NCBI GenBank assembly: GCA_003577105.1
Contig: QEUQ01000006.1
Location: 14,286-78,285 of the forward strand
Reading direction: 5' to 3'
Source: Acidobacteriota bacterium
Lineage (GTDB): Bacteria > Actinomycetota > Acidimicrobiia > ATN3
Length of the DNA stretch: 64,000 nucleotides
The notes under the pieces are model-generated. The model saw nothing but the letters and a program-made list of their open reading frames with translations, searched no databases and was not told the origin of the DNA. A program made the position numbers and the translations under genes. Below are positions 5,313 through 20,976 of this stretch, piece by piece; the stretch's first letter is position 1, and each line of letters opens with the position of its first letter.

Positions 5313-5887
5313 CTGCCTTCCCCTTCATTTGCCCCGAGGCCCTCAGGGATCGACGGCGCCCCGAGTGGCTCCGAGTAGAAGTCCGACGGAAGACCCTTGC
5401 CGCCCTCTGGACGCTCCCCGCGCATCGCCGAATCGACAATCGAGTCGGCTGCCTCGATAGTCACGTTTTCGAAGTACTCGCCATCGACCTGAAGGCACGG
5501 GGCGCCACCACATGCTGCGAGACACTCGACCTCCTCGAGGTAGACCTCCCCACCGGAAGTCGAGTGGCCACACTTGGAGCCGAGACGGTGCTCAATGCGC
5601 TCGAGAAGTTCGTCACTTCCCTGGAGCATGCACGAGATGTTGTTGCAGACAGAGATGATCTTCTTGCCAGCGGGTTCGCGAAGGTACATCGTGTAGAAAC
5701 TCGCGACCGAGAAGACCTGCGCCGGCTCCAGGCCGAGAATCTCTGCTACCTCCCGCATGCCATCTGGACTCAGCCAGCCATCTTGGGACTGAGCCAAGTG
5801 CAGGAGCGGCAGGACCGCTGATTCCGATTGCGGGTACTGGGCGACAATCCGGTCGGCTATGCGGCGATTCTCAGCAGAAAAACTCAT
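5309..5887 (-). CDS. nuoE: NADH-quinone oxidoreductase subunit E
   Basis: VASFYTMY, CNNISC...ECLAAC 2Fe-2S ligands; operon position. Confidence 0.95.
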   Translation of the reverse strand: MSFSAENRRIADRIVAQYPQSESAVLPLLHLAQSQDGWLSPDGMREVAEILGLEPAQVFSVASFYTMYLREPAGKKIISVCNNISCMLQGSDELLERIEHRLGSKCGHSTSGGEVYLEEVECLAACGGAPCLQVDGEYFENVTIEAADSIVDSAMRGERPEGGKGLPSDFYSEPLGAPSIPEGLGANEGEGS

Positions 5888-7236
5888 CGGTCCACGTCCC
5901 CCATCACCGGATCCGTGCTGGCAATCACGGCTACGGCATCGGCGAGCAGGCCGCCTTCCATCATGGGCGCTAGGCCTTGGAGATTCGCAAACGACGGTGC
6001 TCTCACGTGCAAGCGCCAGGGTTTCGAGGATCCACTTGAGACGAGATAGTTCGCGATCTCTCCTCTCGGGGACTCGATCGCGCAGTAAACCTCACCCGCA
6101 GGGACTTTGTATCCCTCGGTGAAGATCTTGAAGTGATGAATCAGTGCTTCCATTGATTCGTCAATCCGAATTCGGGGTGGCGGAGTGACCTTCTTGTCCT
6201 GACTCCGATAGTCACCTTCGGGCATTCGGTCGAGAACTTGCTTGACGATCTTGATGCTCTCTCGCATCTCGCCCACACGGACCTTGTAGCGGTCAAAGAC
6301 GTCGCCGTTTGTGCCGGTTATGACATCGAAGTCATACGTCTCATAACCGCAGTAGGGTTGGTCGACGCGAAGATCCCAAGCCTTGCCCGCTGCTCGCAGT
6401 ATCGGACCGGTCAGGCCGAGCGCGTAGCACTGCTCGACCGTAACGGAGCCGACGCCAATAGTCCGCTCACGCCAAATGGGGTTCTCCGTGAGCAGTTCTT
6501 CGTATTCGTCGATGTGCGCGGGAAAAGTCTCGACGATCTTCGCGACGTCTGATTCCCAGTCAGGCGGAAGGTCCGCAGCCACTCCGCCCGGACGGATGTA
6601 ATCGTTGTTCATGCGAAGCCCCGAGCACTTCTCAAAGAAGCTCAAGATCTCTTCTCGCTCGCGGAACCCATAGATCATCATCGAGATGGCCCCCAGGTCC
6701 ATGCCCTGGGTGGCAAGCGAAACCAGATGAGACGAGATCCGGTTTAGCTCAGCCATCAGCACCCTAATGGCCGTAGCTCTGGGAGGAATTTCGAGGTCGA
6801 GTAGCTTTTCGACAGTCAGCGCCCAGCAGAGCTCGTTGCTCATCGGGGCGAGATAGTCCATGCGGGTCACGTTGGTCGCGCCCTGCGTGAAGGTCAGAGT
6901 CTCCGCCGTCTTCTCCATGCCTGTGTGCAGATAGCCAATGACTGGTTTGACCCTGACAACGGTCTCGGCATCGAGCTCAAGCATCAGCCGCAGAACTCCG
7001 TGCGTCGACGGGTGCTGGGGACCCATATTGATGATCATCGTCTCGTCGTCATCGCTGACGTCGGACCATGGTTCGTTGGTCATCACGGCCTTGCGGGCAC
7101 CTGCTGCGTTGCCTTTCTCGTAGGCAAGCTCAAGGCTGCCGGTCTCGTCGCGCCCGCGCATCTTCTGCGCACCTTCATCGGTGCGAGCGCGATCTGCCTC
7201 CGCGGCGATTCCTTCGAGTTCCACTTGCTCAGGCAC
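5884..7236 (-). CDS. nuoD: NADH-quinone oxidoreductase subunit D
   Basis: NMGPQHPSTHGVLRL, GYLHTGMEK, ESPRGE, C-terminal DPVMGDVDR; has an N-terminal extension. Confidence 0.97.
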   Translation of the reverse strand: MPEQVELEGIAAEADRARTDEGAQKMRGRDETGSLELAYEKGNAAGARKAVMTNEPWSDVSDDDETMIINMGPQHPSTHGVLRLMLELDAETVVRVKPVIGYLHTGMEKTAETLTFTQGATNVTRMDYLAPMSNELCWALTVEKLLDLEIPPRATAIRVLMAELNRISSHLVSLATQGMDLGAISMMIYGFREREEILSFFEKCSGLRMNNDYIRPGGVAADLPPDWESDVAKIVETFPAHIDEYEELLTENPIWRERTIGVGSVTVEQCYALGLTGPILRAAGKAWDLRVDQPYCGYETYDFDVITGTNGDVFDRYKVRVGEMRESIKIVKQVLDRMPEGDYRSQDKKVTPPPRIRIDESMEALIHHFKIFTEGYKVPAGEVYCAIESPRGEIANYLVSSGSSKPWRLHVRAPSFANLQGLAPMMEGGLLADAVAVIASTDPVMGDVDR

Positions 7237-10228: not shown

Positions 10229-11062
10229 TCAGCCGCCCGCGAGCGTGCGCTCGTATGCGACGACTGCCTCTAGCTCGTCCGGTGAGAGGATGCTCCCAAA
10301 AGCCGGCATCGAACCGCGTGCCGGGTTCTTGTTGGCGCCCCACCCGTCGGGGAAGGCGGCGTTGCCTTTCTTGACAAACTCAACTTGAGAGGCCGCTTCG
10401 GGGAAGTCCTTTAGCAACGTCGTGTTGTTGGCCTTGGAAAGCGGAAGGCCGACACCGCCCTGTCCTGTAGCTCCGTGGCACGCCGCACATTGCTTCTCAA
10501 AGACCGCCTTGCCGTCAGGACCCTTCTTGGAGACATCGGCCCCCGGCTCAGGCAGCGCAGAACCGTCGCACGCGATCAGCTGACCGTCATCACCGACGTT
10601 GAGCTTGCCGGCCTGCCCGCACCTAACGCCGCTTGAGAACTGGCCGAGGTAGACCATGGCAATCACCGGGAGAACAACAAAGGCAAGCACTAGCCACTTC
10701 GGCGCTCCGCTGGTGACAACCTCCTTGATGCCACCCGCAATCTCGCTCTGATCAGCTTCCGGATATGGCACCTCGCCAACTCCGACGAGATCAATTGCCG
10801 GCGCTACAAGAGCCTTGGCCTCGGCGACAGTGACCTCCCGGGGGGGCGCCGGTGTTGACGCTGGAGGAGTCGCGGGTGAAGCCGGTGATGCCGGTGATGC
10901 CTGTGAAGCGACAGCTTCCTGAGCCGGCTCTTCGGCCGCGCCGCCACCTCCAGCTTCGGCCGTCGGGGTGTCAGCCGCTTCGCCGCCCTCGTCGTCGCCA
11001 CCCTCCGACTTGGAGCGTGCGGCCTGCGAGCGCTTCAGCAGATGCTCGGGGATCTCTACCAT
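10229..11062 (-). CDS. Membrane-anchored monoheme cytochrome c with long N-terminal low-complexity tether
   Basis: One TM helix (WLVLAFVVLPVIAMVYL), CAACH heme motif, GSMPAF axial Met; N-terminus MVEIPEHLLKRSQAAR followed by an acidic Ala/Pro linker. Confidence 0.9.
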   Translation of the reverse strand: MVEIPEHLLKRSQAARSKSEGGDDEGGEAADTPTAEAGGGGAAEEPAQEAVASQASPASPASPATPPASTPAPPREVTVAEAKALVAPAIDLVGVGEVPYPEADQSEIAGGIKEVVTSGAPKWLVLAFVVLPVIAMVYLGQFSSGVRCGQAGKLNVGDDGQLIACDGSALPEPGADVSKKGPDGKAVFEKQCAACHGATGQGGVGLPLSKANNTTLLKDFPEAASQVEFVKKGNAAFPDGWGANKNPARGSMPAFGSILSPDELEAVVAYERTLAGG

Positions 11063-11077
11063 GGCGAAGGGGCTCCT

Positions 11078-13009
11078 CTATTTCAGAGTGGACAGATAGC
11101 TGACGAGGTTCTGCATCTCTTCGTCTGAGAGATGTGAATACGAGGGCATCACCGACCAGTCGGCGGTCTCGTGCGGATCCTTCAGATGCGCTATGAGGGC
11201 ATCGGCATCTTTGGTTCCGTCGCGGCCGGCAAAGTGGGTTAGGTCAGGTCCGATACGACGGGTACCCATCATCTGGGGGTCGTCAAACGCGTAGTCGCCG
11301 GGAACGGAAACGGCACCGAGATATGCGTCGGCCTCGACGGGGCGGACTACCTGAGTATGGCAATTCCAACAACCCTCTCTCGCATAGATCAGACGCCCCT
11401 TGGCCTCGGGAGTATCGAGATTTGGAGCCGCTACCTGGCGTTCGTTGCCCAGCTTCGTCGGAGTCGTGAAGCTCTCGTTGGCGACTGGCAATGAGACCGC
11501 AAGCCACAGCCCCAAGCCGAAAATGACCGCTGATGCAACAAGTACCGCGGGTGCACTCTCTCTCTTCTCGCCCTCGCCGGCATCATCAAATGGCACAAGC
11601 CGCTCGCGTGCACCAAGCTCGCCCCCCATGACGGTTCGCACCAGGTTTGTGAGGAAGACCAGCGCTGCCACGGCGACAATTGCGATTCCAACCACGCGCA
11701 TAGTGGAGAACCACCTGAGCGGTTCGGCGACTCCTTGCCAAGCTGACCCAGTGACGACGGGTTTGGCATTGGTCGCGCCCGCCTGCCAAATGAATCCTGT
11801 TACGGCGCCACCGACCCAGGCCCCGGCCGCCAAAGTGACAACGCCTACGACCGTCAGGCCCAAATGCCAGTTGGCCAAGCTCGTCGAGACCCACTGACGG
11901 CCCGTCACCCTCGGGATCACCTCGTAAACGGATCCAGCAGCCCAGCACGAGAGGCCACCAATCAAGAGCAGTTCCGTATTGCCGAGTAGGAAGTCGGTCA
12001 GTCCGACGATCTGCTGGCTACTGCGGAGCGCGCCGAGAGGCATCATCAGCGAGTAGAGAAAGAGGAGTCCCCCGCCGGCCACGAAGAACCTGACAGGGAC
12101 CGAGCGCCCGACAGTTCCCCAGCGCCCCTTGAGGCTTCTGCTCAAGTTTGAGAGAACGGTCCACACCGGAATCGCACTCACGATCGAGAAGGCTATGGCG
12201 ATCGACTGGAGGCTCTCCTGCCCTGGACCAAAGATGCCGCGAATCTGCCCTGTGAATACCCAGAAGATCACTAGCGACCAAAAACCCACCATGGCAATCC
12301 GGCGAGAATAGAGCGGGGCACCGGCGATCTTTGGAATGAAGTAGTAGACAGCGCCAATCCCCGCTGCGAGCAGCCAGAGGCCTGCGACGTTCTGCGCATA
12401 GAAATTGGCCTGCGTTGACTGCCCAACACCCGCGTAAATCGGGAGGTTCGCCGCGACAATCATTATCGGAAGGGCTATGACAGCGAGACCGAAGTACCAG
12501 AGCGACGGATAGATTTGCGGTTCGGCCCGCTTAAGGATTGTGCCCACGACGGCCGCGGCAGTAACCAGGGACGAAATCACCAAGACTGCCGCAATGTAAA
12601 TGGGGAACTCGAGAAACTGCTGCCCTCCCCCAAAGCCAGCTCCTATCGCGCATATACCCGCTAGCGTGCCAAGGAACCAAAGCAGCGCGTTTCCCTTCAA
12701 TGCGGCCTCAGCAACGAGTGACGTACCGCAAAGCCTAGGAACGACGTAAATCGCTGCGGCGGTCAAAGCCATCGAAAGCCAGCCATAGAGGATCGCATCG
12801 AGGAACATCGATTGCGCTCGCCCATACGCGAGGAATGACAGCCCACCTAGCAAGTCCGGATAGATCAGCTGTGCGGCAGCTAGAAATCCGATGACAGCCC
12901 CGACTGCCAGCCAGATCCCCGAGAGGACCAAATACAGCTTGGCCGCCGAATCACCGCGGCTGCCGCTGTCGGAGTTTGAGGACTCACTCACTTCGGGTTC
13001 TTCAGTCAA
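11078..13009 (-). CDS. cbb3-type oxidase CcoN-like/CcoO fusion with degenerate (His-less) CcoN domain
   Basis: CcoN-like segments (YGRAQSMF, IYPSLWYF, YYFIPK...PLYS, TDFLLGN, YEVIPR) and intact CcoO (GRLIYAREGCWNCHTQVVRP, GTRRIGPDL, HLKDP, SVMPSY); start TTG at 13009 with GAGGG (ORF track extends to 13075). Confidence 0.88.
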   Translation of the reverse strand: MTEEPEVSESSNSDSGSRGDSAAKLYLVLSGIWLAVGAVIGFLAAAQLIYPDLLGGLSFLAYGRAQSMFLDAILYGWLSMALTAAAIYVVPRLCGTSLVAEAALKGNALLWFLGTLAGICAIGAGFGGGQQFLEFPIYIAAVLVISSLVTAAAVVGTILKRAEPQIYPSLWYFGLAVIALPIMIVAANLPIYAGVGQSTQANFYAQNVAGLWLLAAGIGAVYYFIPKIAGAPLYSRRIAMVGFWSLVIFWVFTGQIRGIFGPGQESLQSIAIAFSIVSAIPVWTVLSNLSRSLKGRWGTVGRSVPVRFFVAGGGLLFLYSLMMPLGALRSSQQIVGLTDFLLGNTELLLIGGLSCWAAGSVYEVIPRVTGRQWVSTSLANWHLGLTVVGVVTLAAGAWVGGAVTGFIWQAGATNAKPVVTGSAWQGVAEPLRWFSTMRVVGIAIVAVAALVFLTNLVRTVMGGELGARERLVPFDDAGEGEKRESAPAVLVASAVIFGLGLWLAVSLPVANESFTTPTKLGNERQVAAPNLDTPEAKGRLIYAREGCWNCHTQVVRPVEADAYLGAVSVPGDYAFDDPQMMGTRRIGPDLTHFAGRDGTKDADALIAHLKDPHETADWSVMPSYSHLSDEEMQNLVSYLSTLK

Positions 13010-13113
13010 TGCTCGCCCCTCAATTTCTGGAACGCGACATGAAATCGCTGCGGCGTCGGAGCTCCAAAGGCCCACGAAACGCTCCTGCTGCCGCGCCGGG
13101 CACTTGGCGCGGG

Positions 13114-13143
13114 ATTGTCCTCGTCCGGTGGCGGAAGTGTCAA
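13114..13143 (-). promoter_or_regulatory. Candidate housekeeping-sigma promoter for the ccoNO-like gene
   Basis: Minus strand TTGACA-N18-GACAAT in the gap between resC and the ccoNO-like gene. Confidence 0.55.
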
Positions 13144-13159
13144 GAACACCGAACCCTCC

Positions 13160-14017
13160 CTAGGTGCCTGCGTACGAGTGCAAGCCGGCAATCCAAAGGT
13201 TGACGGCGTAGAAATTCACAAGGATCGCCACCCCTCCGACTATCGCCAGTATTGCCGCGCCCCGCCCGCGCCAGCCTTGCGTCGCTCGAGCATGTAAGTA
13301 CGCGGCAAATATCATCAGAACGATGAAGGACATCGTCTCTTTGGGATCCCAGCCCCAGTAGCGGCCCCAGGCTTGCTCGCCCCAAATCGCTCCAGCGATG
13401 ACTCCCAGCGTCCAGATCGGGAATGCAAACATGATCATTCGGTACGAGGCCTGATCCAGGCGATCCGCGCTCGGCAAGCGCGAGACAAGCCCCCCATCAC
13501 TGGTGTCCTCGTCTGCAAAATCTGGATGCCTCGCCTCCCACCGACGCCGAACCAAGTACATGACCTCCAAGATCGCACCAAACAAGAGAAGTGATGCCCC
13601 GGCCATGACGAGAAAGACATGAAATGTCAGCCAGTTACTTCGAAGCGCCGGTTGGAGTTCGCCAGGATCGGCGTAAATGACCCAGCCGACCGACATAAGA
13701 ATCGCCGCGGCGGCAGCCACATATCCCCCGAGCGCCGTGAGGCCGAACTTGGCCTGACCTACGAACAAGTAGGCGGTGATCAACACGAAGGCCAGCGATG
13801 CCGTGAACTCATACATGTTCCCCCACGGTGCGTGCTCCGCCGCAAGGGTTCGGGTTATCAGAGAGAGGAGGTGAAGCGCCCATCCCAGCGAGAGAACGGC
13901 TGTGGCAAAGACCTTCCACTTACGCGTGCGCCAGGCGACGAAGCCGAAGTACCCCCCAGCCGCGACGAAGTAGAGGACGAGCGCCGACACGAAAGCTGCG
14001 TTTGATGTGCGATTCAA
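13160..14017 (-). CDS. resC: System II cytochrome c synthase ResC/CcsA
   Basis: WWD motif WGEQAWGRYWGWDPKET, HAPWGNMYE, conserved His (LTFHV, AYLH, GLHSY); TTG start overlaps the resB stop. Confidence 0.94.
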   Translation of the reverse strand: MNRTSNAAFVSALVLYFVAAGGYFGFVAWRTRKWKVFATAVLSLGWALHLLSLITRTLAAEHAPWGNMYEFTASLAFVLITAYLFVGQAKFGLTALGGYVAAAAAILMSVGWVIYADPGELQPALRSNWLTFHVFLVMAGASLLLFGAILEVMYLVRRRWEARHPDFADEDTSDGGLVSRLPSADRLDQASYRMIMFAFPIWTLGVIAGAIWGEQAWGRYWGWDPKETMSFIVLMIFAAYLHARATQGWRGRGAAILAIVGGVAILVNFYAVNLWIAGLHSYAGT

Positions 14018-15642
14018 CGAGTTGCCTTCTTTGCGACTGAGCCGGCCCCTCGAAGTGCGTCTGTGAGATCCGTTTCGATGCGCAAGAACTCCTCCTCGAA
14101 TATGTCCTTGCGCTGATATGCGACCCCGCCGAAGCGTAGCACCACCCCTTCGGTCCCACCCTCGACAACTTCGAACCAAAGTCGGCGCCGGTATGCGTAA
14201 AGCGCCGGATACAGACTGAGCATCATCACTGCGGCGGCGGCGGCGGCAACCGGAGTCCCGTAAGAGTCGCGCTTCACCGAGAAGACCGTGAAGCGCCTGA
14301 GGTCTATGAGTTCAACGTTGAGGCCGCCTCCAAGCTGAGTTGAGGTGCCCAGCTTCTCGTTGGCATTCGCAGGGAAGGTGGCGAACTTCTGTGCGACCTG
14401 TTCCAGGCCCGTCTTGTCGAGTTCATAGACGTTTTGCGGTTTGTCTAGTCCGAGGTCTCCCCGATACTCAGTCACGACGACGAGCGGGCGCTCGCCAAAG
14501 TCTCCAGTACTGATGAGGTCAAGAGCACCGGGCTCCCTAGCTCGGGGATCATCGGGATTGGTGGCGCGAAAGGGAACCAGCTTGAAATCGGGAAAGAGTG
14601 AGAGCTCCAGACCCACCGAGCCTGAGGCGGTGGAGGGCAACTTGATGACGCCGGCACTCGAGCCATTGGGGCCGCGCATTCCCAAGACCAATGGGCCGTC
14701 GTAAACGACGGTGCTTCCGTCGGTAACACGCACGACTGGGGCCCAGCCGTATCCGAGTTGGTAAAGCTTGACTCCCTTATAGGAGACGGGCTTGTTCACC
14801 CGCACTTCGTCCTCGAGGACCTCCCTGCCGTCGTCGAGGATCTTCACGCGTGAGGTGTAGCTCTTGGGCATGCCGTCGTCGCCGTAGGCGACATCGAAAT
14901 CCTCTACGGCGACGGTGAATCCAGCGTGAGGGTTGATCCATCGGGCGAAGGCACCCTCGCTGTACTCGTCGAAATTGACCCGGCCTCCCTCTACCCAGCT
15001 TGTCTTCTCGACTACCACCGCGCTTCCCTCGAATTTTGTGGTGATCGTCAGAGCTGCGGCCAGTGCCACCAAGAAGAATGACCAGTGAAACAGGACACTC
15101 CCTGTCTCGCGTGAGTGACCTCGCTCGGCGATCCACTGGTTCGCCCCATTGACTGGTGATGACCGCCAGCGTCTGCGGCCGAGAACCCGCCGCGCCTCTG
15201 TCACCGTTTCATCTGAACTCAGCTCCGATTCAACCTCGGTCGTGAAGCGGAGATCTGGGAGGCGGCCTCGCTCCGGTGCTTGCTTGATGCGACGCGCGTG
15301 GGAGAGAGCGGCCCGGGTCCTAGGTATCAGACATGCGCCGGTCACAAATAAAAGAAAGCCGGCCAGGGCGAGAAACCACCAGGAGGTGAAGACCTGAAAC
15401 AGGCCGAGGCGATCGAAAACCTCTCCCCAGAAGCGATGCTCCTCGATGAACTGGGCCACTTTCGAGGGCGCGGCGCTTCGCTGAGGAATCACACTGCCCA
15501 GAAGCGAGACGATCGCTACGGCGATGAGAAGCTGAATGGCAGTCCGCATCGAACGCAGGCGACGCCAGCCGTGCATGCGCTCCATAGCCCTAGGCGGCAC
15601 CGGCTCTGCTCCGAAGTCCTCACTCTCGTTCGATTCAGTCAA
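14014..15642 (-). CDS. resB: System II cytochrome c biogenesis protein ResB/Ccs1
   Basis: LRSMRTAIQLL...GSVIPQ, FTSWWF, GSVLFH, VRVNKP...YQ; large extracytoplasmic domain; between resA and resC. Confidence 0.92.
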   Translation of the reverse strand: MTESNESEDFGAEPVPPRAMERMHGWRRLRSMRTAIQLLIAVAIVSLLGSVIPQRSAAPSKVAQFIEEHRFWGEVFDRLGLFQVFTSWWFLALAGFLLFVTGACLIPRTRAALSHARRIKQAPERGRLPDLRFTTEVESELSSDETVTEARRVLGRRRWRSSPVNGANQWIAERGHSRETGSVLFHWSFFLVALAAALTITTKFEGSAVVVEKTSWVEGGRVNFDEYSEGAFARWINPHAGFTVAVEDFDVAYGDDGMPKSYTSRVKILDDGREVLEDEVRVNKPVSYKGVKLYQLGYGWAPVVRVTDGSTVVYDGPLVLGMRGPNGSSAGVIKLPSTASGSVGLELSLFPDFKLVPFRATNPDDPRAREPGALDLISTGDFGERPLVVVTEYRGDLGLDKPQNVYELDKTGLEQVAQKFATFPANANEKLGTSTQLGGGLNVELIDLRRFTVFSVKRDSYGTPVAAAAAAVMMLSLYPALYAYRRRLWFEVVEGGTEGVVLRFGGVAYQRKDIFEEEFLRIETDLTDALRGAGSVAKKATR

Positions 15643-16168
15643 TCGATCCCCCCGCCCGGGCGTACTCGATCATGCAGCTGAGGTCTGTCTTCTCGATCGG
15701 ACCCGGTATTGAGGCAACGACCCTCCCGTCGCGTGCGACAACAAAGGTTGACGGAGGGGCAGTCACCTTCCAAGTCGCGGCGAGTGCGGCCTCCCGGTCA
15801 TATATCGACGGAAAGGGAACGTCGAACTCGCGCTCAAAGGCTGCTGCCGCTGCCCTGTCATCGCGAATGTTCACCCCGATAAATTGGACTCCCTGAGATG
15901 ACAGCTCCCGGGCCGCTGCTGCGAGCATCGGGGTCTCCGTCCGGCAGGGGCCACACCACGACGCCCAAAAGTTCACCACGGTGACCTGTCCGGCAGTGCT
16001 CACAAGTGATACGGGGGTCTCGCCGGTCACGGGAGGCCCTTCGGTATTGGGAGCGGGACTGTCCCGAGAGATCACCCGACCGCTGCAAATCGCTGCCTCC
16101 CCGGAAGTGCAAGCCGGCAGAAGCATGATCAGCGCGACAAGTCCAAGAGAGAGCCGGCGCCGCGTCAT
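15635..16168 (-). CDS. resA: ResA/TlpA thiol-disulfide oxidoreductase (lipoprotein)
   Basis: VNFWASWCGPCRTE; LPAC lipobox. Confidence 0.9.
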   Translation of the reverse strand: MTRRRLSLGLVALIMLLPACTSGEAAICSGRVISRDSPAPNTEGPPVTGETPVSLVSTAGQVTVVNFWASWCGPCRTETPMLAAAARELSSQGVQFIGVNIRDDRAAAAAFEREFDVPFPSIYDREAALAATWKVTAPPSTFVVARDGRVVASIPGPIEKTDLSCMIEYARAGGSID

Positions 16169-16270
16169 CGCTCACACAAGGGGATCAACGGCGCTGGCCC
16201 TCGGTAGGCGCTGCGAGTCCGCGCTGATGATTCGGCTGAGTTTGCCGGGTACTTTCGGGCCGTGACTAGA

Positions 16271-16288
16271 ATGTGCATCGATTCACAA
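16271..16288. promoter_or_regulatory. Rex operator candidate at the resA / cytochrome bc divergent promoter
   Basis: ATGTGCA-TCGA-TTCACAA vs Rex consensus TTGTGAA-N4-TTCACAA (2 mismatches); overlaps a TAGAAT -10 hexamer (16267-16272). Confidence 0.7.
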
Positions 16289-16350
16289 GGTTACCGGAAG
16301 CGGCACATCCATCTTTCCGGATGCCGCAATTCATACGGAGGTATCAACAC

Positions 16351-16662
16351 GTGGGCTCGGGCAATAGGTCGTGGGTCGCTAGCGTCTATCTCGCTGCCCT
16401 CGCATTCGCCTTGTTGATCCTCGTCTATGGGGTCATACCGAGCGAGTTCATCGGCTGGTTCAACAAGAAGTACAACGACGCGAACCTCCGAAAGTTCGTA
16501 CGTGATCCGATCGTCGTCGTGTGGCACCTGGTGACAATCGCGGGTTTCGTCGTCTACGCCGTGCAGTACCAGAACTTCCGCGCGAAGCGAGCCAAGAAGG
16601 CCGCTGAGGCTGAGTCCGAGAGCGAATCGGCCTACGGCAGACCGCTGAAGTCGGAGGCCTGA
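16351..16662 (+). CDS. Small 2-TM hypothetical membrane protein, first gene of the cytochrome bc operon
   Basis: Two hydrophobic segments; GTG at 16351 preceded by GGAGG (ORF track starts at 16273, inside the operator). Confidence 0.75.
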   Translation: MGSGNRSWVASVYLAALAFALLILVYGVIPSEFIGWFNKKYNDANLRKFVRDPIVVVWHLVTIAGFVVYAVQYQNFRAKRAKKAAEAESESESAYGRPLKSEA

Positions 16663-16670
16663 GTAAGACC

Positions 16671-17078
16671 ATGGCCCGCGGAATCGTCACCGGATTGCCG
16701 GATACATTCACGGACTACGAGGTCGAGCTGATCGATCCCGGAACCCTGGAGAAGTCCGTACGCCCCAAGCAGTTCCTCCACATTGACCAGGAGGAATGCA
16801 TTATGTGTGAAGGGTGTGTGGACATTTGCCCGTGGCGGTGCATCCACATGCTCTCGACCGATTCGGTTCTGGACGCCGAAGGAATTGAGCGGCCCGGGGA
16901 GGATCCCGAGGACCACGTCGTCTTTGTTGTCGACGAAGACGAATGCACACGATGTCAACTTTGCGTGGACCGCTGCCCAACGGGCGTAATCATGCTCGGC
17001 AAGGTCGGCTTGGCGGTGCGCGGCGATACACATTCCAGAGACCAGAGGCACGGGTACGCATATGGCGTCAGGTTCTGA
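16671..17078 (+). CDS. 2[4Fe-4S] dicluster ferredoxin
   Basis: CIMCEGCVDICP and CTRCQLCVDRCP. Confidence 0.92.
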   Translation: MARGIVTGLPDTFTDYEVELIDPGTLEKSVRPKQFLHIDQEECIMCEGCVDICPWRCIHMLSTDSVLDAEGIERPGEDPEDHVVFVVDEDECTRCQLCVDRCPTGVIMLGKVGLAVRGDTHSRDQRHGYAYGVRF

Positions 17079-17121
17079 CGCGATGGCGGCTCGTACAGGA
17101 AGACACCGGAGGTAGTTCCAA

Positions 17122-17904
17122 GTGGCCAACGGAAACGGCGGCCTCGGCAGCAAGCTGTCCGATAAGGGAAAGCAGCTGACCGAGAAGGTCCAGTCGAGCC
17201 AGGCATGGACCTCCATTTTCCGCCCTGGTTCGATCTTCTCAAAGGGCTACTCCGACAGCCCTCGAAATCGCTCGTACGTGATCATGAACTCCCTCGTCTA
17301 TCACCTCCATCCGGTGAAGGTGAAGCGTCACGGGGTGAAGGTCAGCTACACGCTCTGCTTGGGTGGCCTTTCGTTTTTTCTGTTCATAGTCCTCACGATC
17401 ACGGGCATCTTCCTGATGTTCGTTTATCGGCCTACCGAAGCTCAGGCCTATCCGGACATGCAGGCCATGATGACCTCGGTTGCGTTCGGGACCCTCGTGC
17501 GAAATATGCACCGCTGGGGAGCGCACCTCATGGTGATCTCGGTCTTCTTGCACATGGCCCGCGTCTTTTACCACGGTGCGTACAAGTCGCCGCGTGAGTT
17601 CAACTGGGTCATTGGAGTCCAGCTCCTCATGCTCACACTCCTGCTCTCCTTCACGGGATACCTGCTTCCGTGGGATCAGCTGAGCCTCTGGGCCGTCACG
17701 GTGGGTACCAACATGATGGGCTACACACCCGTCTTCGGCCGCGAGATGCGTTTCGTTCTTCTCGGGAGTACGGAGATTTCCACCAACACCCTGCTTCGCT
17801 GGTATGTACTCCACGTGATCATGCTCCCATTCGTAGCCGTCATCTTCATGGCCATCCATTTCTGGAGAGTGCGCAAAGACGGCGGCATTTCCGGTCCGCT
17901 CTAG
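17122..17904 (+). CDS. Cytochrome b, short b6-type subunit of a Rieske/cyt b complex
   Basis: TLCLGG, RNMHRWGAHLMVISVFLHM, FTGYLLPWDQ, WYVLHV...AIHFWRVRKDGGISGPL. Confidence 0.93.
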   Translation: MANGNGGLGSKLSDKGKQLTEKVQSSQAWTSIFRPGSIFSKGYSDSPRNRSYVIMNSLVYHLHPVKVKRHGVKVSYTLCLGGLSFFLFIVLTITGIFLMFVYRPTEAQAYPDMQAMMTSVAFGTLVRNMHRWGAHLMVISVFLHMARVFYHGAYKSPREFNWVIGVQLLMLTLLLSFTGYLLPWDQLSLWAVTVGTNMMGYTPVFGREMRFVLLGSTEISTNTLLRWYVLHVIMLPFVAVIFMAIHFWRVRKDGGISGPL

Positions 17905-17922
17905 GCTGAGGTTCGAACGCCA

Positions 17923-18609
17923 ATGGTTGAAATACCAGAACACCTGCTGAAGCGCTCGCAAGCAGCGCGAAACAAGGCCGAATCGGACGGCGACGAAGCT
18001 CCAGCTGAAGATGCGGCGCCAGAAGCCGCGGAGCCGGCCAAGGTCGCCACAGCCACAGAGGCCGCGCCGCCGAAGCCGAAGAAGTCCGGAAACGGCGGCG
18101 GAGCCGCAACCAAGCTCCACACCCACCGATTGCTCACGGTAGTCAAGTCGGGCTCTATTCAGCCGCCCAAACCCGCACCGGTGGACAAGGTCAACGTCTG
18201 GCCGCACCTACTGGTGATTGAGTTTCTTGCGCTCTTGGCCTGCATGGTGTTCCTGGTGCTCTTCAGCATCTTCGTAAACGCGCCCTTGCTCGAAGAGGCC
18301 AACTACAACAAGACGCCGAACCCGTCGAAAGCGCCCTGGTACTTCCTTGGCCTCCAAGAACTGCTGGCCTACTTCGATCCGATGATTGCGGGGGTGACGA
18401 TTCCAGGCATGGGTCTGATCGGTCTCGCGCTTGCGCCGTATATCGACAAGAACCCGAGCAATCACCCCGAAGACCGCAAGTTCGCGATAGCGCTCTTCAC
18501 CTTTTTCATGATGTTTTGGACGGTCCTGGTGATCATCGGGTCGTTCTTCAGAGGTCCGGGCTACAACTTCGCGTGGCCCTGGGCCGATGGGATCTACTTC
18601 GACTTATGA
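17923..18609 (+). CDS. Cytochrome b subunit IV (PetD/QcrC-like C-terminal part)
   Basis: VWPHLL, TPNPSKAPWYFLGLQELL (Qo motif variant), PYID; N-terminal tether identical in its first 16 aa to the protein at 10229-11062. Confidence 0.9.
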   Translation: MVEIPEHLLKRSQAARNKAESDGDEAPAEDAAPEAAEPAKVATATEAAPPKPKKSGNGGGAATKLHTHRLLTVVKSGSIQPPKPAPVDKVNVWPHLLVIEFLALLACMVFLVLFSIFVNAPLLEEANYNKTPNPSKAPWYFLGLQELLAYFDPMIAGVTIPGMGLIGLALAPYIDKNPSNHPEDRKFAIALFTFFMMFWTVLVIIGSFFRGPGYNFAWPWADGIYFDL

Positions 18610-18619
18610 GGTCAGACGC

Positions 18620-19438
18620 GTGACAACTCGCCAACTCCTCCTTATAGCAATACCCACAGGGCTCGCCTTGCTTGTTCTGTTTGGAATAGTCGTTGCCGCT
18701 TCGCGGCGAGAGTCTGACCTCGAGCTCGGGCGGGACGAGGCCGAACGCGAAGCAGCTCTGGCTGCAGTACCAGGCGGTTCCTCCTCGGGTAGCCGGACTC
18801 GCAAGAAGACCGCCCCTGGCAACGTCGAGATGGAGAAGGTCACGCCCAAGTTCGATCCCGAACTCGAAGGGATGACCAGGCGCCAGGTCCTGAACCGGGG
18901 GATCGTTCTCGCTGCGCTCACGGGCCTTGCGGCGTTCGGCGGTGCGTGCCTCGCCTTCCTTTGGCCCAAGCTCTCGGGGGGATTTGGCTCGGTGATATCG
19001 GCCGGCAATATCAATGAGATAAAGGCACAGATCAAGAACGACAAGGCGCCCTTCTACAACCCCAGCGGGCGCTTCTATCTGATGACCTATGAAACCGAGC
19101 TCGACAATGCCGAAGGGGAAGTGCTCTACCCGACAGTCTTCACGCAGTTCAAAGAGACGGGCCTAATTGCGATGTACCAGAAGTGCCCGCACCTCGGATG
19201 CAGAGTGCCGTGGTGCAGCACTTCGCAGTGGTTTGAGTGCCCTTGCCACGGATCGAAATACAACTCCGCTGGTGAATGGACAGGCGGACCGGCACCACGC
19301 GGCATGTGGCATTTCCCGATCAAGCTGAACGGCGAGCAAGTCTCGGTGGACACCGGAACTCAAGTTGAAGGCCCGCCGAAGGGCACCTCGACTCCGGTTA
19401 ATGCCGAAGCCAAAGGCCCGCACTGCGTCGGGATTTAG
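18620..19438 (+). CDS. Rieske 2Fe-2S subunit
   Basis: KCPHLGC and ECPCHGSKY; internal Tat motif MTRRQVL + TM; extra N-terminal TM; GTG start with GAGGT upstream. Confidence 0.93.
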   Translation: MTTRQLLLIAIPTGLALLVLFGIVVAASRRESDLELGRDEAEREAALAAVPGGSSSGSRTRKKTAPGNVEMEKVTPKFDPELEGMTRRQVLNRGIVLAALTGLAAFGGACLAFLWPKLSGGFGSVISAGNINEIKAQIKNDKAPFYNPSGRFYLMTYETELDNAEGEVLYPTVFTQFKETGLIAMYQKCPHLGCRVPWCSTSQWFECPCHGSKYNSAGEWTGGPAPRGMWHFPIKLNGEQVSVDTGTQVEGPPKGTSTPVNAEAKGPHCVGI

Positions 19439-19482: not shown

Positions 19483-20445
19483 ATGAACTCAAGCTTGACC
19501 CTGATCCTCGTGGCCGGCGTCGTGCTCTTTCTCGGCGCTGGATTCCTGTTCTTCTCTGGAACAGGGCCGCGCAAACCGAAGAAGGTAATACCGGCAAATC
19601 AGAAGCGTTACCACGACGACGAAACCCTCGAGGGGCCTGTGCTCACCAAGATCCTCGGGTGGTCGCTCATCTTCACTTTCATGCTTGCAGCGGCGCTACC
19701 GCTCTATTGGCTGACGGAACCACAGCGCCAGGTCAGCTTTGCCGAGAAGTACAACCACAATGCGGCCGAACGCGGCAAGAAGTTCTTTGCGGACGCAAAG
19801 GAAGATCCGGAGGGATTCGGGTGCGCCACGTGCCACGGAGGCGTCAAGGGCGGAACGACCCGATACGTGCTGCTTTCGGGGCCGGAAGAAGGCCGTGAAG
19901 TCACGTGGACCGCGCCCGCGCTCGATGACATCTTCTATCGCTTCAGCCGCGATCAAGTGCATGACATCCTTGTATATGGGCGTCCAAACACACCGATGCC
20001 TGCCTGGGGATTGCGAGGCGGCGGCCCGATGACCGAGCAAATGCTCAACGACGTCATTTCCTATCTTGAATCGATTCAGACCGATCCTGAGACAGCCAAG
20101 CAGAATGCCGGCGGAGGACAGGGTCTCTCGGGTCAGAAGCTCTTCGAGAAGAATTGCGCGCGGTGCCATACGCAAGGGTGGAGCTACAGGTATCCGGACG
20201 TGACCTGGAACAAGCCGGTCGTCATGGGGCCGGCGGGTGGAGGTTCTTTTGGGCCGAACTTGCGGGGATCCGTAACCCGCCAGTTCTACGACCCCGCCGA
20301 TCAAGTCAAATTCGTCTCTGACGGAAGCCAGTTCGGCAAGGCATACGGGCAGAACGGAGTCGGAACTGGGCGCATGCCGGGCATGGGGAAGATCCTCGAT
20401 GAAAAGGACATCATGGCAATCGTCGAATATGAGCGGAGTCTGTAG
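19483..20445 (+). CDS. Membrane-anchored diheme cytochrome c
   Basis: CATCH and CARCH, PMPAW and RMPG Met ligands, two N-terminal TM segments. Confidence 0.92.
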   Translation: MNSSLTLILVAGVVLFLGAGFLFFSGTGPRKPKKVIPANQKRYHDDETLEGPVLTKILGWSLIFTFMLAAALPLYWLTEPQRQVSFAEKYNHNAAERGKKFFADAKEDPEGFGCATCHGGVKGGTTRYVLLSGPEEGREVTWTAPALDDIFYRFSRDQVHDILVYGRPNTPMPAWGLRGGGPMTEQMLNDVISYLESIQTDPETAKQNAGGGQGLSGQKLFEKNCARCHTQGWSYRYPDVTWNKPVVMGPAGGGSFGPNLRGSVTRQFYDPADQVKFVSDGSQFGKAYGQNGVGTGRMPGMGKILDEKDIMAIVEYERSL

Positions 20446-20976
20446 ATGTATCTGATAGCTTCAGCCGCAGCCTCAAAGCTCTCACCCACAGCGCTCTTCA
20501 TGCGCGGGGTGATCGTAGTCATCGCTGCTTTCGTGATCTTCGTCGGTTCGGTCTGGCTTGTCCTCATGACTGACGTCGGGGCCAAGAAGGCCATCATGCT
20601 CGTCTTGACGGTGCTTTTCGCATTTATCTCGATGCTCTCGTTGCTCTGGTTCAGATATCCACAGCAAGCGCCAACACCCCATGGAACAGTCTGCCTTGGC
20701 GGCAAGGTCAATCCGGCCTTCGAGGAGAATGGTGGTGCAGCCGGGGAATCGTCTGTCAGCGTCAAGAAGAATGTCGGTGGATCCGAAGTCGATGAGAAGA
20801 TCAGTGCCTGCGAATCTGGCGTCTTCTTTACGAAGTACTTCTACCCAACCATCTTCCTTGTGACCAGTATCGTCCTCTCGCTGATTTCGGCGACTGGGCT
20901 GAATCGGATTGAGAAGGCCGAGAAGCTCGCCGATGAACTCGAGGCCGCTGGCGAGCTAGAGGCCGCCACCGCCTAA
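20446..20976 (+). CDS. 3-TM hypothetical membrane protein, last gene of the bc operon
   Basis: Starts directly after the cytochrome c stop; three hydrophobic segments; Cys pair in the loop. Confidence 0.75.
   Translation: MYLIASAAASKLSPTALFMRGVIVVIAAFVIFVGSVWLVLMTDVGAKKAIMLVLTVLFAFISMLSLLWFRYPQQAPTPHGTVCLGGKVNPAFEENGGAAGESSVSVKKNVGGSEVDEKISACESGVFFTKYFYPTIFLVTSIVLSLISATGLNRIEKAEKLADELEAAGELEAATA

Follow-up and report, generated by a model that had tools for sequence, protein, structure and literature searches.

The shared N-terminal peptide

The window analysed here, a stretch of 64,000 nucleotides from contig QEUQ01000006.1 of a bacterium of the class Acidimicrobiia, holds the genes of a cbb3-like oxidase on the reverse strand and the operon of a split cytochrome b6c complex on the forward strand. 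One protein of each system, a monohaem cytochrome c and the PetD-like subunit IV of the b6c complex, begins with the same 16 residues, MVEIPEHLLKRSQAAR, as follows from translation of the two open reading frames (ORFs). The parts of the two genes are listed below (aa, amino acids; pLDDT, predicted local distance difference test).

10229-11062, minus strand: membrane-anchored monohaem cytochrome c, 277 aa, third cbb3-like oxidase subunit by gene position (PF00034/PF13442 at residues 183-273; one CxxCH)
11015-11062, minus strand: 16-codon shared peptide MVEIPEHLLKRSQAAR, N-terminus of the monohaem cytochrome c (translation; profile A1, 61 bits)
10709-11014, minus strand: acidic Ala/Pro/Gly-rich linker of the cytochrome c, residues 17-118 (78% A/P/G/S/T/E/D, net charge -14; pLDDT <50 over most of it)
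10634-10699, minus strand: single membrane helix of the cytochrome c, about residues 122-143 (AlphaFold2 helix 121-142, model numbering being residue minus 1)
17923-18609, plus strand: 228-aa PetD-like protein, subunit IV in the split cytochrome b6c complex (PF00032, 32.9 bits against a cut-off of 20.7; an APWY loop, in the place of the PEWY-type Qo loop, read in the sequence)
17923-17970, plus strand: 16-codon shared peptide, N-terminus of cytochrome b subunit IV (translation; profile A1, 55 bits)
17971-18114, plus strand: acidic Ala/Pro-rich linker of subunit IV, residues 17-64 (81% A/P/G/S/T/E/D, net charge -3)
18115-18198, plus strand: conserved juxtamembrane segment of subunit IV (LHTHRLLTVVKSGSIQ...DKVNV), before helix E, kept in homologues of the same class and of other classes

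The coding DNA of the two copies is alike in 38 of 48 bases. All 10 differences fall on third codon positions and are synonymous, so that 10 of the 16 codons differ, and in a simulation the peptide survived in none of 200,000 random draws of 10 base changes. Immediately after it the two proteins diverge, the next 16 residues being SKSEGGDDEGGEAADT in one and NKAESDGDEAPAEDAA in the other. In-frame stop codons are found 5 and 6 codons 5' of the two ATGs, and therefore neither ORF starts further upstream; GGAG/GAGG stands 11-12 bases 5' of each ATG. A motif profile of 32 columns (alignment A1) matched the 2.87-Mb genome in exactly two places, the cytochrome c gene (61 bits) and the subunit IV gene (55 bits), with the next match at 16 bits. 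A match to the degenerate DNA pattern of the motif on contig C30 of the same genome was discarded as chance, the frame there being only 12 codons long.

In the AlphaFold2 model of the cytochrome c, the first row of which lacks Met1 so that its numbering is protein residue minus 1, a helix is predicted at 5-19, followed by a disordered stretch of about 70 residues at pLDDT <50 (20-58, 60-73 and 85-93), the transmembrane helix at 121-142 and a confidently modelled haem domain. The N-terminus of PetD-type subunits IV lies on the n-side of the membrane in solved b6f and bc1 structures, and the haem c domain of the cytochrome must lie outside; both tails would thus be cytoplasmic.

Conservation within the class

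The search for homologues of subunit IV, in which 8000 candidates were scored, all at E <= 0.001, yielded thousands of homologues. All 120 of those listed begin with x-[TV]-E-[IV]-P-E-H-L-[LR], and 106 of them have a second, internal copy (typically R-I-P-A-H-L-L-E-R-S-x-A-A-K) 30-55 residues further in, the other 14 being single-copy. Among the 65 listed homologues of the cytochrome c, the short motif is present near the N-terminus in 55 and a longer variant in 3, and the 7 that have neither are unrelated multi-haem proteins. The degenerate DNA pattern of the motif was matched in 203 of 301 genomes of the class, with reversed-pattern control columns that were nearly all zero. In a sample of 151 genomes from the phylum, the motif profile found all 11 genomes of the class (the window's own genome, G000, and 10 others) and none of the 140 outside it. 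In line with a link to respiration, in families f16 and f19, where the motif pattern is rare or was not found (2 of 13 and 0 of 2 genomes, respectively), the subunit IV search gave no match in the one genome each that was covered (G028 and G046). A scan for E-I-P-E-H-L-L-K-R with one genome per species returned at least 119 stretches, under the titles Ilumatobacteraceae, Microthrixaceae, Acidimicrobiales, Iamia, Desertimonas and Aquihabitans sp. G128. Six contigs titled Bifidobacterium (L141, L151, L152, L172, L173 and L187) also carry the motif, on cytochrome c or subunit IV genes of the Acidimicrobiia type; these contigs are probably mis-binned.

Among 142 distinct instances of the motif, His4 is kept in 134, Ala12 in 126 and Arg/Lys13 in 136; these three positions had been left free by the search pattern, which fixed several of the other kept positions. 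The variable positions are 3, 7, 10, 11 and 14, and the kept residues (I, P, H, L, L, R, S/A, A, R/K) share one side of a helical wheel. In most of the class, what follows this core is not the same in the two carriers, RAQAAREKA being typical of subunit IV and RSRERRAALG of the cytochrome c. One clade has a derived extension, RSREAMARAKA.KGE, that is common to subunit IV and the cytochrome c (P0010, P0011, P0016 and P0130-P0137).

These results agree in part with what a preliminary description of this DNA had proposed. It had reported the identical start of two respiratory ORFs with 10 synonymous codon differences, which translation and DNA comparison confirm, and had read it as a sign of protein-level selection rather than recent copying, for which the synonymous-only differences and the presence of the motif in 120 of 120 subunit IV and 55 of 65 cytochrome c homologues provide support. 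The acidic Ala/Pro-rich linker that it placed between the helix and the first membrane helix is seen in composition, charge and the AlphaFold2 model, and its cytoplasmic N-termini are consistent with the topology considered above. The recurrence of the motif in its own and in related genomes, on which that reading turned, was likewise found, with two places at home and conservation in homologues across the class.

A longer form of the module

Some families of the class gave poor matches to the DNA pattern. In the four of these that were read in detail (f3, f7, f10 and f12), subunit IV starts with a longer unit, e.g., V-E-I-P-E-S-L-L-R-R-S-A-E-A-R-A-K-A-L-G-V-P-V-E-D-V-L-A-E-M-K-G-E, and the oxidase cytochromes of these long-form lineages start with a unit of 46 residues that has one extra helix in front. 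A profile of the long form (A5) was matched in 62 of 121 genomes of the class, including 13/13 in f3, 28/28 in f7, 4/5 in f10, 3/3 in f12, 5/5 in f15 and 5/7 in f6, and had no match in the window's own genome. AlphaFold2 predicts the 46-residue unit, from an alignment of 12 rows, as a three-helix bundle with helices at 2-12, 16-30 and 34-42 (pLDDT 93.5; predicted template modelling score 0.70). The window peptide is the counterpart of the middle helix. The 16-residue peptide is a relic, or core helix, the short form of an older and larger three-helix module.

In one long-form genome (G005), the units of the neighbouring CcoO-like and cytochrome c genes (L063:11245-11382 and 12267-12404) are identical in 137 of 138 bases, the start codon being the sole difference, which marks a recent gene conversion or duplication between the two genes.

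No known family or fold was found for the module. Pfam-A and NCBIfam have no family over it in the window proteins, nor in the long-form carriers at E <= 5; the PF00032/PetD assignment pertains to subunit IV as the carrier protein, not to the peptide. A phmmer search of the PDB with the 30-residue N-terminus gave 0 matches at E <= 10, and when the unit model was compared with the PDB by Foldseek, nothing matched at E <= 0.001, the nearest natural resemblance being to three-helix domains of the ANTAR type at E of about 5. The ESM Atlas held no usable match to residues 1-46 of P0157.

A sister element in other classes

The gene for a ferredoxin-like protein and the b6c operon to which it belongs (see below) also occur in other classes of the phylum, where subunit IV begins with a different element of two helices, e.g., I-D-Q-E-V-Y-D-R-L-I-A-G-G-T-S-E-R-I-A-R-A-K-A-K-A-A-A-V-R-K. 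The same sister element is found again on the C-terminal tail of the complex I subunit NuoI, in three copies in G349 (where the NuoI assignment scores 93 bits against a model cut-off of 113), two in G386 and one in G405, and in G314 it is present on a small membrane protein. Its profile (A6) was matched in 51 of the 151 genomes of the phylum sample, all of them among the 140 outside the window's class and none among the 11 within it. This tally and that of the ferredoxin homologues given below take in six genomes marked unpublished (G301, G317, G345, G383, G412 and G438); none of the loci described here comes from them. According to our reading of alignments A1, A5 and A6, both types of element have [RK]-[SA]-x-x-[AV]-R in the basic helix.

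Copies of the element on different proteins of one genome are more alike than copies from different genomes: in four genomes, identity is 63% within the genome (11 pairs) vs 37% between genomes (44 pairs). Specifically, subunit IV and NuoI of the same genome are 48-68% identical in the element, and the subunits IV of different genomes 33-56%.

The window's own genome has two NuoI-like genes, C103:12965-13429 and C65:14230-14586, the latter in the nuo operon at the low-coordinate end of the window. One of them is 66% identical to a tail-bearing NuoI of another class and lacks the tail, and the one in the nuo operon has an unrelated C-terminal extension; neither has the element, and NuoI was dropped as a carrier in this genome.

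Proteins that carry the module

Apart from subunit IV, which in the sequences read in detail has one or two units, the module was found on several proteins of the oxidase. It is present on CcoO-like subunits that are separate from CcoN (L060 and L063), and CcoP-like cytochromes c have one to four units in tandem (three in L061, four in L119); a multi-pass membrane protein of 385 aa also has a unit (L116). In f7, a family of 1-Mb genomes, the alpha subunit of 2-oxoacid:ferredoxin oxidoreductase (KorA) has one unit at each end, which was verified in G080 (TIGR03710, 649 bits); in seven further genomes of this family the unit lies in frames of 665-920 aa.

The short-form profile, run against a library of 1.84 billion proteins, retrieved 676 proteins at E <= 0.001 and 83 at E <= 1e-10. 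A crude sort of the best 150 of these matches gave 24 subunit IV-like and 9 cytochrome c-like proteins and 117 others, the last being, by reading, mostly N-terminal fragments of subunit IV. Some of these others are different proteins. P0242 and P0329 bear seven and three units, respectively, attached to a membrane domain akin to the product of the last b6c operon gene. In P0188, a soluble domain ends in four copies; in P0189, P0214 and P0285, two or three copies at the N-terminus precede unassigned soluble domains; and P0290 has two copies before a large membrane protein. In G258, a soluble protein of 151 aa has a C-terminal copy, and its homologue in the window's genome is without that tail. 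The metagenome protein P0230 has two motif copies followed by a further stretch that, by reading, resembles a TIR-type domain and may be one.

The motif also occurs at the start of small ORFs on two phage contigs from IMG/VR, L043 (231 kb) and L044. On the second of these, the motif ORF stands beside terminase-like ORFs, as judged by reading of the translations. On the first, the motif-led ORF (L043:5001-5324) adjoins an ORF at 5436-6530 in which a J-domain-like signature (HPD) followed by a kinase-like region can be read. Pfam and PHROGs searches with P0187-P0190, P0214, P0285, P0290, the phage ORFs and L031 gave no family, only weak sub-threshold matches, and a protein-cluster look-up of the extra carriers gave no useful name, the sole one being "hypothetical protein". 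Viral scans with the long form and with P0285 had no matches, and that with P0189 retrieved just the L043 contig again. Two candidate carriers were set aside as chance or artefact, L029 and L027, the match in the latter lying, by reading, in an alternative frame over an UppP-like gene.

Carriers in complete genomes are, with few exceptions, respiratory proteins. Copies per protein range from one to seven, and the linkers are rich in Ala and Pro.

Gene neighbourhood in the window

The remaining genes of the two systems in the window are the following.

11078-13075, minus strand: CcoN-CcoO fusion, i.e., subunits I and II of a cbb3-type oxidase, 665 aa (PF00115 and PF02433; NF011053 at 259 bits, under its cut-off)
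16671-17078, plus strand: 2x[4Fe-4S] ferredoxin-like protein of the cytoplasm, product of the first conserved b6c operon gene and candidate partner only (Fer4 families, NuoI-like TIGR01971; net charge -13; operon position conserved)
17122-17904, plus strand: cytochrome b6 (PF00033)
18587-19438, plus strand: Rieske iron-sulfur subunit (PF00355)
19483-20445, plus strand: dihaem cytochrome c of the b6c complex (two PF00034/PF13442 stretches)
20446-20976, plus strand: 176-aa membrane protein, last operon gene (BLASTP to P0329, E 2e-5, and P0242, E 1e-3; blocks in common with the L060 homologue)

The cytochrome c gene lies directly downstream of the CcoN-CcoO fusion, and the window cytochrome is CcoP-like by gene position only: it scores 38.2 bits against the CcoP model TIGR00782, the cut-off of which is 179.95, and has one CxxCH where two haem c domains are required. 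In G007 and G005 (L060 and L063), CcoO is separate from CcoN and has an N-terminal three-helix unit of its own; given that the two are fused in the window, the fusion would have cost one tail.

The order of the b6c operon is 129-aa membrane protein, ferredoxin-like protein, cytochrome b6, subunit IV, Rieske protein, dihaem cytochrome c and 176-aa membrane protein. Relatives of the last protein in other lineages carry 3-7 copies of the module. Its acidic C-terminal helix was considered as a partner of the tag and dropped, the helix not being conserved in homologues. At two loci of other genomes (L061 and L062, from G037 and G110), nuoA and nuoB come after the last operon gene on the same strand.

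The b6c operon directly adjoins the oxidase genes, in divergent orientation, in three other families (CcsA, CcsB and TlpA were among the tblastn queries), whereas in the window genes of cytochrome c biogenesis intervene. These are CcsA-like, CcsB-like and thioredoxin-like ORFs, assigned by reading, at 13160-16168 on the minus strand.

Possible function of the module

The peptide has the features of a modular docking tag, i.e., the same element recurs on proteins that are otherwise unrelated, N- or C-terminally, with copy numbers that vary, on flexible linkers and with one conserved face, the binding itself being putative. The peptide and the larger unit are very probably a modular element for interaction that is under selection. 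The docking or oligomerization helix on a tether that the preliminary description put forward is, as a general idea, in keeping with the occurrence of the motif as a module on diverse, unrelated proteins; the partners that it offered, ferredoxin, complex I or each other, are all candidates.

Our preferred reading, which we consider plausible although somewhat short of probable, is that the module is a docking tag for one common cytoplasmic partner. The conserved face (I-P-x-H-L-L-x-R-S/A-x-x-A-R/K) of each copy would bind the same partner, the tagged enzymes would be held together on flexible lines at the inner face of the membrane, and the number of copies would set the avidity. The carriers include subunits of both partner complexes, b6c and the cbb3-type oxidase. 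As to the identity of the partner, the ferredoxin-like protein of the b6c operon is our leading candidate, a tentative one that, on balance, is less likely than not to be correct. It is favoured because it is the sole product of the conserved operon without a membrane helix, because it is acidic, its net charge of -13 being opposite to the basic face of the module, because other carriers are ferredoxin-type (NuoI) or ferredoxin-using (KorA) proteins, and because an insertion in it tracks the long form: 11-13 extra residues near the C-terminus, with P-W-[DE]-x-D, are present in exactly the six long-form rows of the 17 aligned (A2). If the ferredoxin-like protein is the partner, a ferredoxin hub would be placed beside the quinone-reducing side of the b6c complex. 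The C-terminus of this protein has a conserved, class-specific H/N-G-Y-x-Y-G-x-R-[FWL], and homologues from other classes match only to about residue 112.

Several observations speak against docking on a common partner, and on this ferredoxin in particular. Everything said of binding here is drawn from anatomy and distribution, and the match between insertion and long form may go back to just one split in the tree. In family f57, the ferredoxin-like gene is present in 8 of 10 genomes and neither type of element was found there; likewise, 57 of the 140 genomes outside the class, none of which gave a match to the IPEHLL form, have ferredoxin-like homologues. Why the oxidase cytochromes should require a ferredoxin is not obvious. 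At least one other small frame of the Fer4 type (87 aa) is present in the 1-Mb genomes of f7, and therefore there are other possible acceptors for KorA; the notion that the operon ferredoxin is the only ferredoxin of these genomes was dropped for the same reason. Finally, self-association would explain the within-genome likeness of the elements no less well than a common partner, and gene conversion, as in the 137 of 138 identical bases in G005, also homogenizes copies. A prediction of the complex between the ferredoxin-like protein (A2) and a 32-residue peptide (A1) scored 0.00 in a run without controls and is counted neither way.

Self-association is the main rival to docking on a common partner. 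Here, the modules on subunit IV, the oxidase cytochromes, NuoI or KorA would pair or bundle in the manner of velcro and create a loose supercomplex or patch. The identity of 63% across the proteins of a genome vs 37% between genomes is what would be expected of elements that bind each other, as is the derived extension RSREAMARAKA.KGE common to subunit IV and cytochrome c of one clade; the multivalent copy numbers, from one to seven, and the conserved small residues (S/A and A), which suit tight helix-helix packing, point in the same direction. However, the long form is predicted to be a closed three-helix bundle on its own, so the conserved core may serve intramolecular contacts; a single helix of 14 residues is a weak unit of self-association; beyond the core, subunit IV and cytochrome c have different residues in most of the class; and gene conversion may account for part of the likeness within genomes. 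All considered, self-association seems to us possible but doubtful. A common partner other than the operon ferredoxin-like protein, such as a scaffold, a cytoskeletal protein or an assembly factor of the class, is rather improbable. A general hub of this kind would explain the tag on phage ORFs and on several unrelated soluble proteins without family, and the motif is indeed class-restricted in the phylum sample (11/11 vs 0/140); against it, the carriers in complete genomes are almost only respiratory proteins, and besides the operon's own genes no candidate gene travels with them.

The remaining explanations do without a specific binding partner. That the basic helix merely lies on anionic lipid or nucleic acid, or that the tail is a mere entropic spacer, might follow from the conservation of Arg/Lys at i and i+5 in both the class form and the sister element and from the long, disordered linkers. 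Yet Pro, His, Ser/Ala and Ala are kept by identity, beyond what charge or hydrophobicity would require, the core has just three strongly hydrophobic residues, and the helix sits on an acidic tail, with a net charge of -14 in the cytochrome c, which makes such a non-specific role very unlikely. The targeting or proteolysis tag that the preliminary description had also envisaged, or a membrane-insertion signal, would have to be read at the N-terminus. The extreme N-terminal position of the motif in both window proteins, in 120 of 120 listed subunits IV and in most cytochrome c homologues agrees with this, but the second internal copy in 106 of the 120 subunits IV, the C-terminal copies on KorA, P0188 and the soluble protein of G258, the arrays of up to seven units and the position of the sister element at the C-terminus of NuoI do not, and such a signal is highly improbable. 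Tat and Sec signals consist of a basic N-terminal region, with twin Arg in the case of Tat, followed by a hydrophobic core and a cleavage site, and this arrangement was not found: in the window proteins, 48-102 residues of acidic, low-complexity linker come after the motif, and there are internal and C-terminal copies besides. As for recent copying or gene conversion without any function, conversion does happen, as the G005 units (137 of 138 bases) attest, but the window copies differ in 10 of 16 codons, always synonymously, which refutes this explanation for the window, and the motif is conserved across the class; its overall probability is close to nil.

Comparison with known systems

The closest parallel in general design is the Rubisco-binding motif of the Chlamydomonas pyrenoid, which is present in the repeats of EPYC1 and also on membrane and starch-sheath proteins and binds the small subunit of Rubisco. 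Like the module described here, it is a short helical motif on disordered linkers, present in one to many copies on unrelated proteins, including membrane proteins, that are gathered in one place. It is, however, eukaryotic, has a known partner and is without sequence relation to the module, which is found on respiratory and ferredoxin-linked enzymes and for which the partner is only a candidate.

Another tethered peptide that binds a hub is the C-terminal tail of FtsZ, which binds FtsA, ZipA and SepF from the end of a disordered linker and has the form D-[IV]-P-x-F-L at the extreme C-terminus; the FtsZ of the window's own genome ends in DDLDIPSFLK. The two resemble each other in that an acidic linker is combined with (D/E)-I-P-x-aromatic/His-L and a short helix. 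They differ in that the module has His in place of the anchoring Phe in 134 of 142 instances, an N-terminal or internal position, a longer helix and a conserved R-S-x-x-A-R. Mimicry of the FtsZ tail, with I-P-x-x-L in common, was dropped as probably no more than a superficial likeness.

The docking domains of polyketide synthases and the dockerin-cohesin pairs are likewise small, terminal helical modules on linkers that co-evolve and join separate enzymes, but they are non-respiratory, and no sequence or fold match to the module was found (Foldseek, 0 at E <= 0.001). The cytochrome cy and CcoP of Rhodobacter-type bc1-cbb3 supercomplexes are likewise cytochromes c that are anchored in the membrane, have long tethers rich in Ala and Pro and serve both a bc complex and a cbb3 oxidase; there, the tether is periplasmic and bears the haem domain, whereas here the tail would be cytoplasmic and bears a conserved helix. 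In titles and abstracts of the literature, nothing was found on an IPEHLL motif, on an N-terminal motif of cytochrome b in Acidimicrobiia or on a cytochrome supercomplex in this class. Thus, the motif and the unit have no match in family, structure or literature searches, although short docking elements on disordered tethers are known elsewhere as a general kind. To our knowledge, there is no counterpart of such an element on respiratory complexes.

Implications

Contacts within the membrane or across it are the usual explanation of respiratory supercomplexes. A portable module on long cytoplasmic tethers, common to subunits of complexes III and IV, suggests a different organizing principle, and in sister lineages a tethered module is also found on complex I and on a ferredoxin-reducing enzyme. 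In the most far-reaching version, which we regard as speculative, deep-branching Actinomycetota might wire NuoI/complex I, the b6c complex, the cbb3-type oxidase and 2-oxoacid:ferredoxin oxidoreductase together by tethered mini-domains that dock on a b6c-bound ferredoxin-like subunit, forming a ferredoxin-fed port to the quinone pool, a "respirasome on strings" into which phages would plug proteins of their own. Cultured relatives exist, such as Aquihabitans sp. G128, for which a complete genome is available, and the peptide is short enough for direct binding work. If the module is a docking tag, it would provide a genetically tractable handle on the organization of electron flow in these bacteria, on the role of the ferredoxin-like subunit of the b6c complex and on the access of phages to the energy metabolism of the host.

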